This document shows positions 55,365 to 62,153 of a DNA stretch of 64,000 nt, one piece after another. Within the stretch, counting starts at the first letter, position 1; each line of letters starts with the position of its first letter. The notes below the pieces were generated by a model that was not told where the DNA came from, made no database searches, and saw nothing but the letters and a program-made list of their open reading frames with translations. The DNA is from a virus (Duplodnaviria; Caudoviricetes), in IMG/VR virus record IMGVR_UViG_3300037455_000173, positions 32,001 through 96,000 of that record, one strand, 5' to 3'. The translations under genes and the position numbers were made by a program.

Positions 55365-55399
55365 TGGTGCTCTAATTCAGAATTACACTGAATGAGAAC
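55365..55399 (-). ncRNA. tRNA minihelix MH1
   Basis: GTTCTCATTCAG-TGTAATT-CTGAATTAGAGC-ACCA. Confidence 0.7.
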
Positions 55400-55473
55400 A
55401 TAGTATCGTAGCAGCCCGCTGTAAGAACTGCTACGATAAATGGAAGATACAGTCTATCATGCCAGAAGACTGC

Positions 55474-55548
55474 TGGTGACGGGTAAGAGAGTCGAACTCT
55501 TCTTTAGAGAATGAAAATCTCTTGTCCTAACCGATAGACGAACCCGCC
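55474..55548 (-). tRNA. tRNA-Glu (TTC)
   Basis: Cloverleaf; AGAGA-TTTTCAT-TCTCT; GTTCGAC T-loop; CCA. Confidence 0.93.
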
Positions 55549-55607
55549 CTATACAACTTCCCTGCTATTAAAAGAGCTGTGTGCTAAGTTGCCATGTCAC
55601 GCTACGC

Positions 55608-55682
55608 TGGTTGGGGAAGCGGGATTCGAACCCACGAATGCAGGAGTCAAAGTCCTGTGCCTTACCACTTGGCTATACCCCA
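55608..55682 (-). tRNA. tRNA-Gln (TTG)
   Basis: Cloverleaf; CAGGA-CTTTGAC-TCCTG; GGTTCGAATCC; CCA. Confidence 0.95.
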
Positions 55683-55801
55683 ATAGATTTACCCAGGATA
55701 ACCTGGGCTAAACAGATTAGACAAAATTAAACAATATGGTGTATAATGGAATAAAAGAAAATGCTTTGACCGTATTGCCGATATCCCAGCATATATAGGT
55801 T

Positions 55802-56041
55802 TTACACTTGATTGCTTTCTTCGGGAGTAACTTCTTCTGTTACCGTTTCGTCCTTGAGATACTCGTCAAAGTAATTTGCCATGGCTCTTAAACCACGTAC
55901 AAATGACTCTACGGTACTCTGGTCAACACGTCTGTCTCTCAAATCTCTTTTGAACCTGTTGACACCTCTGGTAAGCTTTGTTAATCCTTCTTCTGCCCTG
56001 TAAGACTCCGCTTCGCTAAATGCGATAACTGTGACTTTCAT
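55802..56041 (-). CDS. Hypothetical protein
   Basis: Own promoter; start MKVTV. Confidence 0.6.
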   Translation of the reverse strand: MKVTVIAFSEAESYRAEEGLTKLTRGVNRFKRDLRDRRVDQSTVESFVRGLRAMANYFDEYLKDETVTEEVTPEESNQV

Positions 56042-56112
56042 TAGGCACCTCCTACACATTTATTTTATACATATATTATAACATAAAATCTGTGTAGAAA
56101 CGAAGTTGTACC

Positions 56113-56556
56113 TCACTCAGAGTCCTTCGAATCTTTCTTATCCTCTTTTAATAGGTCGTCTACAACCTCAAAGACTCCTGGCAATTTATGCATACCCTCA
56201 GCTAGCATATGAGCAAATGTATCATTCATTCCTGTAGATTTGAATTGAGACGCCGCGGACTCAATCATAATTCTTTCCTTTAGCTCTCTGGTAAACTTTT
56301 CGAGTATTTTGTCTAACTCCTTAATGTGTGCGGTAGCCTTCTTATCATATTCCTCTTCATCCTTAGCTTTTACGCTAGGAGGCGGTGTGATGCCACTTGC
56401 TACATCTATTATAACATCAGCTGCGACTTGGATTAACCCATTGTAGGCATCTTTTAGACTGCAGTCTGAACTCATGTTCACACCTTTATCTGTGAACACT
56501 AACGCAATATAACCATTATTTGGTTCATTGCTAATAATCGTTATGCCTGAATCCAT
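56113..56556 (-). CDS. Hypothetical protein
   Basis: AAGGAG RBS. Confidence 0.6.
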   Translation of the reverse strand: MDSGITIISNEPNNGYIALVFTDKGVNMSSDCSLKDAYNGLIQVAADVIIDVASGITPPPSVKAKDEEEYDKKATAHIKELDKILEKFTRELKERIMIESAASQFKSTGMNDTFAHMLAEGMHKLPGVFEVVDDLLKEDKKDSKDSE

Positions 56557-56567
56557 AATATCTCTCC

Positions 56568-56819
56568 TTACCTGTCATAGCACTCATCTGTGTCACCATT
56601 CGGGTAATAATGATTGCTCCGTATCCAACCATTTTCCTGATAAGTGTCAAGACGATAGCACTTAGACGACTCGAACGGTTCGGTAGTAATAACTACATTC
56701 TCACCTTTATCATTGGTAGCTGTAGCTGGTAGATTACTACCTTCACAGAATTGTTCAAGTGTTTTATAACTAATAGGTGTACATATTGTTCTAGGTATCA
56801 CCTTAGTATTCTTATCCAT
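56568..56819 (-). CDS. Hypothetical phage protein
   Basis: N..GENV.I...TYQ.NGWIR.N.YY..G. Confidence 0.65.
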   Translation of the reverse strand: MDKNTKVIPRTICTPISYKTLEQFCEGSNLPATATNDKGENVVITTEPFESSKCYRLDTYQENGWIRSNHYYPNGDTDECYDR

Positions 56820-56822
56820 GAG

Positions 56823-59585: not shown

Positions 59586-59798
59586 TTATTCCTGACTCTC
59601 TATATAGGAATGCTTTACACCTTCCTCTGTAATAGCCAGATTAGAATGAAGCATAGCATCCTCGATATGGGTTAGTGCGATGCTCTTTTCTCTGCAATTA
59701 GGAATTTTATCTAAAAGTTGCTCAACTTCTATCAGCTTCTCTCGTATTTTCTGAGATAACTCTACTTCTTTCTCATTGAATTCTCTGCGTGTATACAT
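59586..59798 (-). CDS. Acb2/Tad1-like hairpin protein (candidate nucleotide-signal sponge)
   Basis: IRE.......L..IP..REKSIALTHIEDAM...N.AI. Confidence 0.65.
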   Translation of the reverse strand: MYTRREFNEKEVELSQKIREKLIEVEQLLDKIPNCREKSIALTHIEDAMLHSNLAITEEGVKHSYIESQE

Positions 59799-59809
59799 AA
59801 TTATTCTCC

Positions 59810-60724
59810 TTATCTATTCATAGGCTTTGTAGCCCAAGGTGCTTCTATATTCTTATAGTTAAGACTAATCTCCTGATATCTGAGTTTAGCACAGATTTCT
59901 TGAATTCTGCTTGAATTAGCTTTAACACTATCCAAATCAGAATACTTACCATTTTTGAGTATATCGTAGCATGTCTTAGAAATACCGTCAGCGACCTTCG
60001 CGCCTAAGAATGGTACACCTTCTTCTGCTAAGAATTGTTCTCTAGGCATATGGTCTACCATGACATTACGGCGATTAGAACCCTCCATACCGTCTGACTC
60101 TGCGTCACGTTCTACAACGACTGACTTGATGCGGTCATTATCATGAACGAACATCCAGATTTGATTTATCCAATTCTTACCTGTAGAACCAATTCTGAAG
60201 TAACAAGTTCCATTATACGCACCAGCATTATACTCGTCGTTCATGCGAACACGAATAAATGTTTCGTTAAGGTCTTTACATACGAAGTCACCTGTGTGGT
60301 CATTAACATCATCACCCAGGTCATACAAGTCAAGTACAGGTATGTCTTTAACCAAATCGAGTAAGAACTGAGCTGTTTCTTCTTTAGTCCAGCCTACAGT
60401 CTCCCCTAGATTAAATGGAAGATTGATAAGGTGTTTACCAAGCCGCTCTCTGAACTCATTTTCGTCGGTAGTGAACATTATACCGTCACCAGCTTGTTTT
60501 CCGACATATTTCTGAAGAAATGTCTTGAGCTTGTCGTACGGACTATATTTTAACATCCAGATAGCTGCCTCAGCGTTAGCATCAAGGTCACCGATTTCAC
60601 CGTAGATATGAATCTTAACCGGTATTACCTCATAGTTCTGACCCTTAGCTCGCATCATCCAAGCCTCACCTAATTCGGTTTTTTCTGAACTCTTGTCACC
60701 CTTTGCCATATTAAGCTTAAGCAT
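59810..60724 (-). CDS. Hypothetical protein
   Basis: 304 aa; own promoter and RBS. Confidence 0.7.
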   Translation of the reverse strand: MLKLNMAKGDKSSEKTELGEAWMMRAKGQNYEVIPVKIHIYGEIGDLDANAEAAIWMLKYSPYDKLKTFLQKYVGKQAGDGIMFTTDENEFRERLGKHLINLPFNLGETVGWTKEETAQFLLDLVKDIPVLDLYDLGDDVNDHTGDFVCKDLNETFIRVRMNDEYNAGAYNGTCYFRIGSTGKNWINQIWMFVHDNDRIKSVVVERDAESDGMEGSNRRNVMVDHMPREQFLAEEGVPFLGAKVADGISKTCYDILKNGKYSDLDSVKANSSRIQEICAKLRYQEISLNYKNIEAPWATKPMNR

Positions 60725-60795
60725 ACCCGTACCTCCTGTGTTTTATTGTACCTATATTATAACATATTATACACAAGGTTACGAAGTTAGTCTCA

Positions 60796-61170
60796 CTATT
60801 CTGACATACACTCAGTTATCTGTACTCTGACAATCAGGTTTTTCAGGTCCTCTAGGTCGATGTCGTCATAGACAAGAACATCTTCACCCCAGGTGTATTT
60901 CGGATTAGACAACTCGATTGAAAACCAAGGTTCCCAACCATCATCAGAATCATCGAAATGAATGTCTAGCTTACAGTCATTTTCAGCCAAATTATCTATA
61001 ATATCTCCATCGCAGTCATCTAGAAAGTTCAAACCTGTTTCTAGAATTTCTGAACCTCGACAGTTACCGCCGATTGGGAAAGAAATATGTCCTATGTAAC
61101 CGTCTTTATTGAATGTAATCTGAACAATATGATGATTTTCCCAACCATCTGGTGAATATTTCTCAATCAT
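60796..61170 (-). CDS. Acidic hypothetical protein
   Basis: GAGG RBS. Confidence 0.6.
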   Translation of the reverse strand: MIEKYSPDGWENHHIVQITFNKDGYIGHISFPIGGNCRGSEILETGLNFLDDCDGDIIDNLAENDCKLDIHFDDSDDGWEPWFSIELSNPKYTWGEDVLVYDDIDLEDLKNLIVRVQITECMSE

Positions 61171-61196
61171 TTCTAGACCCTCATTTCTTGAAGTAG

Positions 61197-61784
61197 GAGG
61201 AGGGAAGTATGTATGTGCGGTAACATACTCCCCTCTGACAAAAGACCAGGCAAAGCCAGGTTGAAGATTTCAAGTAGAAGGGCTTTACCTTTCTTTCACA
61301 AGCATCGTTTCCAAGTTCGAGACTATTGCCCCGGTCAGGTTTGATGTGCCCTTATCTTGTGTATAAGTAAATCTCGCTCAGGCTGCGATTTGCAGTTTTA
61401 TCGTAACTGCCAAATCTTCTCAAAGTGCTACCTTCGGTTCTTGACGCCGGATTTACACCGGAACGTGTAGCAACGTTCGTGAGGCTGAACAACGAGTATC
61501 TTCTCAGCTTTATAACACTCTTGCTATTATCCCAATGTCCGCATTTCATACAGGACCTTTCTTCTTTCGTCTGCCGGGATAGCGTTCAGTTTAAGGTGTG
61601 CAGACTATCGTGCTACACTATTGATTAATCTTACACCAGCCATAGGTAATAATCAAACGCCGGCCGAAACCCGGTGGTTCCTGTGTAATCAGAAACCAGG
61701 TTGGTACCTGTAATGACCGTCAGCATACCTGCATACATGCGACCGTATCGTTCACGAAGCTGCGTTTCTTCCTTCATTACAGAT
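61197..61784 (-). ncRNA. Candidate large (~590 nt) structured ncRNA
   Basis: No credible ORF; many hairpins, long-range stems, T-loop-like hairpin CCGG-TGTAAAT-CCGG; begins directly after MH3 CCA. Confidence 0.6.
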
Positions 61785-61819
61785 TGGTGCTAGAATCAAG
61801 TCATTACCTCGATTCTAAC
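61785..61819 (-). ncRNA. tRNA minihelix MH3
   Basis: GTTAGAATCGAG-GTAATGA-CTTGATTCTAGC-ACCA. Confidence 0.75.
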
Positions 61820-62003
61820 CTAGGTGAGTGCGCCTTGCGTCACAGACCACTCACATGATTCCAAAGTATTAACGTGCGAAGGAATACCTAGCACGGCTTT
61901 TTAGTGCCCACCACTCAACGCCTGTGGTTCCCGAGTGTCGCTCTCGTCGAAGTAAATTTACAGAGCAGCTTACTCTGTTAATGTAGGTGTACTCTTCACC
62001 TAT

Positions 62004-62039
62004 TGGTGCCATCTTATAGTAATTTACCTACTTGACAGC
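62004..62039 (-). ncRNA. tRNA minihelix MH4
   Basis: GCTGTCAAGTAG-GTAAATTA-CTATAAGATGGC-ACCA (two A-A mismatches). Confidence 0.6.
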
Positions 62040-62118
62040 ATACTGCCAACAACATTGACGCGACTCGATGCTGCTGGCAAGCACTTTATGAATGCGGGGT
62101 TGGAAAACATAAGACCCC

Positions 62119-62153
62119 TGGTGGTCATATCAAGTCATTACCTCAATCTGACC
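62119..62153 (-). ncRNA. tRNA minihelix MH5
   Basis: GGTCAGATTGAG-GTAATGA-CTTGATATGACC-ACCA. Confidence 0.75.

Follow-up and report, generated by a model that had tools for sequence, protein, structure and literature searches.

Laboratory studies of RNase P, CCA-adding enzymes and synthetases, and hypotheses on how tRNA originated, have used the acceptor/T-arm minihelix as a model; synthetic minihelices serve as model hairpin substrates for RNase P, the CCA-adding enzyme and certain synthetases. Among phages, conserved RNase III hairpins punctuate the polycistronic RNA of the T7 and SP82 early transcripts. RNase P cleaves hairpins modelled on the acceptor and T stems, using a contact with RCCA, and its natural non-tRNA substrates include the phage M3 and C4 RNAs (PMC11143913). 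In plant mitochondria, t-elements and acceptor-like stem-loops mark mRNA ends, and cuts by RNase P and RNase Z that set the ends of neighbouring RNAs have been proposed or shown for such structures (Forner et al. 2007, PMC1920247).

The window analysed here is a 64,000-nt stretch of the 166.6-kb genome of an uncultured phage (positions 32,001–96,000 of IMG/VR record IMGVR_UViG_3300037455_000173). Five hairpins, all with stems of 12 bp and with loops of 7 nt except for the 8-nt loop of MH4, had been predicted on its minus strand and described as anticodon-less tRNA minihelices; reading of this strand located all of them (MH1–MH5, Table 1). The 12-position stem, the loop lengths, the ACCA encoded in four of the five, and the G start and AG/CU closure of all five were re-read in the sequence. 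Across the family, the G start is confined to this phage and two relatives; in the others the helix starts with C1:G72. The minimum-free-energy fold of MH1–MH5 is in each case the hairpin (z-scores −2.8 to −6.5). A 14-mer, GAGGTAAYGACTTG, occurs exactly three times, with pairing flanks every time. MH1 is the most divergent copy, MH2 lacks CCA and lies in the 3′ UTR downstream of an Acb2/Tad1-like gene, and MH4, with the loop GTAAATTA (RNA letters GUAAAUUA) and two central stem mismatches, represents a subtype kept in two related contigs (L001 and L014). No further copies were found in the whole 166.6-kb genome.

Table 1. Hairpins MH1–MH5 and adjacent features of the window, in 5′ to 3′ order along the minus strand.
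Feature	Position	Strand	Remarks
Phage-type promoter	62435..62468	-	AACTTCG, 19 nt, TGTATAAT; heads cluster A
tRNA-Leu(UAG)	62255..62339	-	encoded ACCA; first gene of cluster A; ARAGORN/Rfam
~100-nt RNA module	62154..62254	-	tRNA-Leu to MH5; conserved CACTTTCC box and covarying hairpin
MH5	62119..62153	-	GGTCAGATTGAG / GTAATGA / CTTGATATGACC + ACCA; 44.7 bits
Spacer RNA with two hairpins	62040..62118	-	MH5 to MH4
MH4	62004..62039	-	12 stacked positions, 2x2 internal loop at pairs 7–8, tail ACCA
RNA Y module	61820..62003	-	120-nt core 61824–61943, ~96% identical to L001
MH3	61785..61819	-	perfect 12 bp, loop GTAATGA, tail ACCA; 45.8 bits
Large structured non-coding RNA	61200..61784	-	downstream of MH3
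MH2	59481..59511	-	perfect 12 bp including G-U pairs, loop GTAACGA; 36.1 bits
RNA X module	59345..59480	-	after MH2; homologous to L001:12445–12540, likewise after MH
Intrinsic terminator	59306..59335	-	end of cluster B
tRNA-Gln(UUG) and tRNA-Glu(UUC)	55474..55682	-	both with encoded ACCA; upstream of MH1
14-bp hairpin	55404..55438	-	directly upstream of MH1
MH1	55365..55399	-	12-bp stem, one mismatch, loop UGUAAUU, tail ACCA; 28 bits

A search of related phage contigs showed that the predicted geometry (12 bp, 7 nt, N-CC(A)) is kept in relatives. The resulting set contains 23 distinct copies with the common core GAG/GUAAYGA/CUU, derived from the window and from related phage contigs of metagenomic origin (at least 11, of 38–165 kb). 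All 23 helices have 12 stacked positions (one with a bulged C); the loop is 7 nt long in 20 copies and 8 nt in three, and it is closed by G:C in 22 and by U:A in one. N-CC directly follows the helix in 19 of the 23 copies, and in another it follows one extra U. Twelve of these 19 tails are NCCA (11 ACCA and one UCCA), certain others end in CCG, CCU or CCC, and the discriminator is A in 17 of the 23 copies. CC is missing after the helix in three cases, MH2 (UUGG), L020_b (ACAA) and L003_b (ACAC), the last with CCA only two bases further on. NCCA is likewise encoded by most tRNA genes of these phages. A complete relative, G001, carries four copies, all within its single 1.4-kb RNA operon. No copy was detected in the 14–21 kb examined of each of contigs L004, L007 and L016, so the element appears to be dispensable for operon processing.

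By itself the geometry is only mildly unusual, since five hairpins with G1, 12 bp (at most two mismatches) and NCCA were counted in the window, compared with 1.06±1.07 in Markov simulations. Covariation, noted for the five hairpins in the original prediction, is supported in the 23-copy set and marks a real family at the RNA level: 90% of cells are paired, both sides have changed at 12 of 13 pairs, the observed score was reached by none of 500 shuffles, and slid controls pair at only 32–46%. This is not an artefact of the selection of copies, because a search with the motif only separates true copies (10–12 pairs) from chance matches (4–7 pairs). The lower nine pairs, acceptor pairs 1–3 included, vary freely with compensation. 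Wobble pairs (G-U and U-G) are common, and their tolerance is confined to one strand. When L001 is compared with the window, the lower stems have been replaced with compensation beside neighbouring RNA that is ~96% identical, which suggests that the lower stem is read as a shape only. Judged by these sequence comparisons, the hairpin family is not due to chance: its core recurs in relatives with a fixed helix and covariation.

The upper part of the hairpin is conserved in sequence. A11:U22 is invariant, G12:C21 is nearly so, the wobble G10.U23 is present in 19 of 23 copies, and G1 and A7 of the loop are conserved. The loop consensus GUAAYGA is not a T-loop (U54...A58, UUCRANY); only MH1 fits the T-loop pattern UGNRA. 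Within one orthologous set the loop varies (GUAAUGA, GAAAAUA, GUGAAUA, GUAACGA). The likeness to a tRNA minihelix thus stands for the 12-bp helix, the 7-nt loop with its G53:C61-like closure, and the discriminator with its N-CC(A) tail, but does not extend to the loop sequence. When the T-loop of model substrates is replaced, the efficiency of RNase P falls and the cut can shift (PMC11143913). A shared aminoacylation identity is improbable, as acceptor pairs 1–3 are not conserved. The constancy of the loop and of the top three pairs, for which generic tRNA enzymes do not account, implies an extra sequence-specific reader.

Several described RNA classes do not fit the hairpins. As had been foreseen, they are missed by tRNA finders: in the window, the calls of ARAGORN and Rfam (cmscan) are limited to three genuine tRNAs, for Leu, Gln and Glu, the hairpins form no cloverleaf, and the Rfam tRNA model RF00005 gives no match to them, partial matches included, even at E≤5. 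The GGTTCRANYCC motif of plant mitochondrial t-elements is present in no copy. They are not intrinsic terminators, as no T run follows any of them and the sites listed by a terminator scan are different ones. Type III toxin-antitoxin (ToxI-like) RNAs consist of tandem ~36-nt repeats, whereas the copies here are scattered and their stems unrelated; the neighbouring nuclease domain is PemK/MazF (PF02452) rather than a ToxN-type partner, and is also present without hairpins. YrlA and other bacterial Y RNAs were rejected on the grounds that RF02553 has no match at the hairpins and the phage has no TROVE gene; the only RF02553 match, L003:5472–5583, is weak (29.7 bits against a threshold of 69).

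Every copy is located in an island of tRNAs and non-coding RNAs, in the orientation of the tRNAs, at the joints of conserved RNA modules, tRNAs and mRNAs, in agreement with the prediction that they punctuate the non-coding RNA regions. The joints are of the types tRNA-RNA-MH, RNA-MH-RNA and RNA-MH-tRNA-Pro; at L003:5997 the hairpin is followed by the RBS of a Tad2-like gene, and at L005:7018 by the next promoter. A stable hairpin or conserved RNA ends 3–11 nt before every copy, and a new stem starts directly after each CCA, making a 3′ boundary at CCA plausible. The promoter motif heading cluster A is repeated before neighbouring early operons (~60790, 59215, 57120 and 56105). Several of the adjoining modules are shared with relatives: the RNA between tRNA-Leu and MH5 has orthologues in L001 and L014, RNA Y lies between MH4 and MH3 in the window phage and L001 alike, and part of the large RNA (~61270–61590), which has no Rfam match, is homologous to RNAs of L003, L005 and L006, where a hairpin directly follows. 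T-arm-like hairpins also occur elsewhere in the islands of relatives (L004:7689–7725 and L003 ~4905).

We consider it about an even chance (probability roughly 0.5) that the hairpins mimic the coaxial acceptor/T-arm top half of tRNA and are used as processing punctuation by tRNA-maturation enzymes. The polycistronic tRNA/non-coding RNA units of the early, anti-defence-rich region would carry the hairpins into the transcript, and host RNase P would cut at the 5′ base of each helix. On the 3′ side, copies with an encoded CCA would be trimmed by exonucleases down to CCA, as in tRNA, and those encoding only ACC plus another nucleotide would be handled by RNase Z and the CCA-adding enzyme. Since the phage encodes no CCA-adding enzyme, host enzymes would serve. 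The long transcript would thereby be split into separate structured RNAs, tRNAs and mRNAs, and a ~35-nt CCA-ended hairpin would be freed, either as a by-product or as an independent small RNA. For this role, also put forward in the original prediction, the geometry, tail and junction placement fit, but the lack of a T-loop and the three copies without CC do not.

The conserved loop and top pairs above a variable stem, and the retention of the G10.U23 wobble, would also suit a sequence-specific binding or cleavage site of a dedicated protein that reads these elements and measures 12 bp from there to the point of cleavage, the CC(A) tail being part of the site and not tRNA mimicry. Possible candidates are a phage endoribonuclease, for instance the conserved MazF/PemK-domain protein encoded next to the islands, or a host enzyme such as RNase III, Mini-III or RNase Y. 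In every relative the islands are followed downstream by a MazF-like gene that retains the R and T conserved in this family, and the RNase III hairpins of T7 and SP82 offer a precedent. However, this gene is also present in L004, L007, L008 and L016, in which no hairpin was found, a 12-bp helix is a short one for RNase III, the loop differs among orthologues of one set, and the equality of the tail with that of tRNA is left unexplained. On balance, a dedicated protein site appears a tentative, rather unlikely alternative.

The hairpin might instead stay attached to the upstream cargo RNA as a tRNA-like 3′ tag, following the model of plant viral RNAs with tRNA-like 3′ ends; hairpin and CCA would together make a stable 3′ terminus, refractory to 3′ exonucleases and open to repair by the CCA-adding enzyme. 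The structured RNA before every copy and the new stem immediately after CCA are consistent with such a tag, as is T4, where the T-arm hairpin of rnaC, a stable RNA of the phage tRNA cluster, is canonical and CACCA is the terminal sequence of rnaD. We nevertheless regard it as unlikely, because RNase P cuts just this kind of structure, a free 12-bp helix preceded by a single-stranded 5′ leader, and because the hairpin does not go with a particular cargo (according to the phage, RNA X comes after a hairpin and the large RNA before one).

It is quite unlikely that each hairpin is a gene for an independent tRNA top half with a CCA end, freed by tRNA-processing enzymes and acting in trans as a decoy or as a CCA-repaired or even charged minimal substrate; if true, this would be a natural use of a minihelix so far only a laboratory construct. 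As decoys or sponges, an idea that the original prediction raised in the form of tRNA decoys insensitive to anticodon nucleases, they would target tRNA acceptor-end binders, such as the CCA- or acceptor-modifying toxins (toxSAS, e.g. CapRel and FaRel2; MenT) and other tRNA-binding proteins. The early region is indeed rich in anti-defence genes, with the Acb2/Tad1-like gene directly upstream of MH2 and Tad2-like, Tad3 and NADAR genes in relatives, and defence effectors targeting the acceptor end exist (PMC9712102; bioRxiv 10.1101/2021.04.30.441581; PMC10435456). But FaRel2 inspects the acceptor stem (bioRxiv 10.1101/2024.07.05.602228), whereas acceptor pairs 1–3 vary freely here, copies per genome are few and certain relatives lack the element, which makes a decoy function very doubtful. 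Finally, an element acting in DNA, as a hairpin or microhomology through which recombination or replication shuffles RNA modules, is extremely improbable: the hairpins are indeed the very points at which module order differs from phage to phage (RNA X comes after MH2 in the window and after the MH3 orthologue in L001), and the 14-nt shared core could act as microhomology, but wobble pairs are tolerated in just one of the strands, every copy is on the transcribed strand, and nothing at the DNA level would account for conservation of the single-stranded CC(A) tail.

A conserved, covarying, genome-encoded hairpin family would supply a natural counterpart of the laboratory minihelix. If used as processing punctuation, it would show that phages, like mitochondria, cut long early transcripts into small RNAs by means of tRNA-shaped marks. 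The hairpins also mark the borders of several highly conserved phage RNAs, clonable as discrete units, and represent a class of elements overlooked by tRNA finders, a pointer for annotation pipelines.

The MH hairpins share with synthetic acceptor-TΨC minihelices the 7+5 = 12-bp coaxial helix, 7-nt loop, G-C closure, discriminator with CCA and length of ~35 nt (PMC11143913; PMC9976931), but are natural, genome-encoded and conserved, with the loop GUAAYGA and without conserved acceptor identity pairs. Plant mitochondrial t-elements and acceptor-stem-like stem-loops are likewise non-tRNA structures within long transcripts; t-elements have a GGTTCRANYCC T-arm and a cloverleaf-like body, are organellar and do not encode CCA, whereas MH is a plain phage hairpin that encodes its CCA and has a loop motif different from theirs. 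The T7 and SP82 RNase III hairpins are also conserved punctuation in polycistronic early phage RNA, but are ~20 bp or longer, with internal loops, no CCA tail and no 12-bp rule. In their proposed role the MH hairpins resemble φ80 M3 RNA and P1/P7 C4 antisense RNA, small phage RNAs matured by RNase P (PMC11143913), and in their location T4 rnaC and rnaD, small phage RNAs encoded in a tRNA cluster (PMC3014915); in the minimum-free-energy fold of rnaC its 5′ and 3′ ends are paired. All of these are single, larger RNAs, whereas MH is a free-standing 35-nt module repeated at several junctions.

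Re-reading of the sequence located all five hairpins (MH1 to MH5) on the minus strand, and the geometry ascribed to them in the original prediction was borne out: each has a 12-position stem with 0–2 mismatches (G-U counted as a pair), a G start, AG/CU closure and a 7-nt loop, extended to 8 nt (GUAAAUUA) in MH4. The loop is GUAAYGA in three of them (GUAAUGA in MH5 and MH3, GUAACGA in MH2) and UGUAAUU in MH1. An encoded ACCA follows MH5, MH4, MH3 and MH1, with UUGG instead in MH2. Each of the five hairpins is the MFE fold, with z-scores of -2.8 to -6.5. Such geometry alone is frequent: the plus strand of the window by itself holds approximately 235 12-bp hairpins with ≤2 mismatches. 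With G1 and NCCA added as a requirement, 5 were observed vs 1.06±1.07 expected. The stronger signal within the genome, outweighing bare geometry, is the common core GAGGTAAYGACTTG, which is present exactly three times, with pairing flanks each time.

In the phage genome (166,592 bp, 40% G+C; the window corresponds to its bases 32001–96000) there are only three tRNA genes, and the minus strand carries all of them: Leu-UAG, Gln-UUG and Glu-UUC. The hairpins are limited to three non-coding stretches adjoining these tRNAs, and no further copies were found elsewhere in the genome. Searches of Rfam at permissive thresholds with the hairpins, two RNA modules termed RNA Y and RNA X, and a large structured RNA identified no family, and neither ROOL nor GOLLD matched. 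Since no U tract follows the hairpins, they are not intrinsic terminators; origin from degenerate tRNAs was likewise rejected, as the phage tRNAs have acceptor/T arms to which the hairpin stems bear no relation. The early operons share a recurring promoter motif (AACTTCG(T), ~19 nt, TGTTATAAT). The large terminase is no more than distantly related to its counterparts in Bacillus phage SP-15 and Listeria phage LIS04, and DNA searches of the phage collection identified no close relative (the matches were tRNAs only). No match was found in the phage for a CCA-adding enzyme or a Ro/TROVE gene; a search with T4 Rnl1 was also negative, as was its positive control. The early regions of the window and its relatives are rich in anti-defence genes, including Tad2-like, Tad3, NADAR and DUF5406 genes in the relative loci L003–L016.

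Features of the window and of relative loci (L numbers)
Feature	Position	Strand	Remarks
MH1	55365-55399	minus	
MH2	59481-59511	minus	
MH3	61785-61819	minus	
MH4	62004-62039	minus	
MH5	62119-62153	minus	
Cluster of MH5, MH4 and MH3		minus	promoter, tRNA-Leu, 100-nt RNA, MH5, 79-nt RNA, MH4, RNA Y, MH3, large RNA
Cluster of MH2		minus	Acb2/Tad1-like gene, hairpin, MH2, RNA X, terminator
Cluster of MH1		minus	tRNA-Gln, tRNA-Glu, hairpin, MH1, further RNA
RNA Y	61820-62003	minus	between MH4 and MH3
RNA Y 120-nt core	61824-61943	minus	L001:12283-12400 in the complete relative
RNA X	59345-59480	minus	after MH2
Large RNA	61200-61784	minus	downstream of MH3
Large RNA, conserved part	61270-61590	minus	L003:4940-5255; L005:8036-8156; L006:7164-7290
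Acb2/Tad1 hairpin-domain protein gene	59586-59798	minus	directly upstream of MH2
MazF/PemK-domain protein gene	58273-59151	minus	292 aa; N-terminal PF02452, 48.8 bits
Tandem short repeats	31356-31450 and 36803-36860		GTCAGCTGTCAGTT units; GTTAGATRT units (intergenic hairpin scan)
Hairpin just ahead of RBS of Tad2-like gene	L003:5997		family member
Hairpin just ahead of next promoter motif	L005:7018		family member
Weak YrlA (Y RNA-like) match	L003:5472-5583		directly after tRNA-Pro; 29.7 bits vs gathering score 69, E = 0.02
T-arm-like canonical hairpins	L004:7689-7725; L003 about 4900-4920		GGGTTCGATTCCC, GTGGGTTCGACTCCCAC; in non-coding RNA, no tRNA called
Perfect 12-bp hairpin	L004:8583-8618		8-nt loop, then TCCA

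One complete 148.7-kb phage (L001/G001) emerged when viral contigs were scanned for the core plus ACCA. Exact-pattern scans gave one relative in viral contigs and one in metagenome contigs, which proved to be the same contig (L001 = L002). This phage carries a single 1.4-kb RNA operon, extending from promoter to terminator, with tRNA-Gln, tRNA-Leu, tRNA-Gly and four hairpins of the family, and no further copies in the rest of its genome. More relatives were reached via a conserved protein with a MazF/PemK domain (110 homologues), whose gene lies downstream of the islands; the loci of these relatives were retrieved by alignment-based search and exact-protein look-ups. A covariance model trained on 15 copies was then run on these loci. 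It was positive in L003, L005/L015, L006/L021, L009/L027, L014, L018, L019, L020, L022/L023, L024 and L025, and negative in the regions examined of L004, L007, L008, L016 and L028–L030. Once duplicates were removed, 23 distinct copies remained; the family thus recurs in related phages, and its helix is always 12 bp long, with a single bulged C in L025.

The MazF/PemK-domain protein is itself kept in >100 relatives, and a sigma-70-like gene follows it in most of the fetched loci. Its RGDVW motif is conserved, conserved R and T residues match by eye the catalytic residues of MazF, and its C-terminal half (~170 aa) has no assigned fold. The phage may use it as a nuclease for RNA shutoff or RNA processing. 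A link with the hairpins is not supported, because the gene also occurs where they are absent.

The covariation of the stems held across the 23 copies: pairing extends to 90% of cells, and in 12 of 13 pairs both sides have changed. None of 500 shuffles matched the observed covariation score, and sliding the partner strand reduced pairing to 32–46%. As some copies had first been picked by a pairing filter, a motif-only search was also performed, in which true copies showed 10–12 pairs vs 4–7 in chance motif matches. Pairs 1 to 9 have many identities (1:72, for example, is G:C in 11 copies and C:G in 11). Next to the loop, A11:U22 is invariant, G12:C21 occurs in 22/23 copies (the lone exception being a compensated U:A) and G10.U23 in 19/23. 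A conserved aminoacylation identity was rejected as unlikely for the family, given the free variation of pairs 1:72 to 3:70 and the absence of G3:U70 from every copy. An MH4 subtype recurs in L001 and L014 as well as in the window; it combines an 8-nt loop with purine-purine mismatches at pairs 7–8, exactly at the acceptor/T junction.

The loop begins with G and ends with A in all copies except MH1, and its positions 2 and 6 are mostly U.G, U-A or A-U. This pattern suggests a triloop cap resting on a G.A pair and one more pair; such pairing would add two stacked layers, like the T54-A58 pair and elbow in tRNA. Directly 3′ of the helix, the tails are ACCA (11 copies), UCCA, UCCG, UCCC, ACCG (2), ACCU (2), UUCC(A), ACAC(CA), ACAA and UUGG. 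N-CC immediately follows the helix in 19/23 copies, representing most orthology classes, the discriminator is A in 17/23, and three have no CC after the helix. NCCA is encoded in most of the true tRNA genes of these phages; in L006 the neighbouring tRNAs lack CCA and the hairpin tail is ACCG. Conservation of the tail beside a stem that varies indicates that the tail is under selection.

Every copy lies on the same strand as the tRNAs and flanking genes, inside gaps left uncalled by gene finders, at joints between RNA modules, tRNAs and genes. In L003, L005, L006, L020 and L024, one hairpin stands between the large-RNA homologue and tRNA-Pro, ~110 nt before the latter. Module order changes exactly at the hairpins, RNA X being placed after MH2 in the window and after the MH3 orthologue in L001. 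The RNA Y core is ~96% identical between these two phages, as compared with only ~46% for the flanking proteins, and the hairpin stems on either side of it have been rewritten with compensation kept. Conservation this strong suggests that the core pairs extensively with, or mimics, a conserved partner.

Conserved across the phage group, the large RNA matches no Rfam family; a hairpin of the family, and then tRNA-Pro, often come after it. The T-arm-like hairpins of L004 and L003 may represent a different type of tRNA-like element within the same islands. The island of L004 lacks the GUAAYGA family, and its 12-bp hairpin may be an unrelated minihelix or a chance occurrence.

Taken together, the fixed 12-bp ruler, 7-nt G:C-closed cap, unpaired A/U-CC(A) tail and location in tRNA operons are those of the top half of a tRNA. 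Given these features and the precedents for RNase P action on hairpin models, M3/C4 RNAs and t-elements, the reading we favour, with a probability of about 0.5, is that the hairpins serve as tRNA-shaped punctuation at which phage RNA operons would be divided into units by host enzymes. The lack of a T-loop, the three CC-less copies and the several relatives with no copy in the region examined count against it; since these, together with the conserved cap, do not fit, other readings were entertained. The conserved loop and top pairs imply a different or an additional reader, and the hairpins might be sites for a dedicated protein, although this is unlikely. Somewhat less probable is a tRNA-like 3′ tag retained on a cargo RNA. 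Trans-acting decoys, the other role originally proposed, appear doubtful, and a DNA-level element is highly improbable.

The literature searched yielded no description of such a hairpin family in phages. Punctuation by tRNA-like hairpins does have parallels. Bacterial RNase P cuts acceptor/T-type hairpin models at the helix base, using the RCCA contact; the natural RNAs that it matures also include some other than tRNAs, among them phage M3 and C4 RNAs, and replacement of the loop in model substrates weakens its action (PMC11143913). In the mitochondria of plants, mRNA ends are marked by t-elements and acceptor-like stem-loops via RNase P and RNase Z (PMC1920247). The tRNA cluster of T4 encodes two stable RNAs whose role is not known (PMC3014915); as checked here, rnaC contains a canonical T-arm hairpin and rnaD has a CACCA 3′ end. 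Unlike tRNAs, the hairpins described here have no T-loop. We rate the family as related to known tRNA-like processing signals and to non-tRNA substrates of RNase P.
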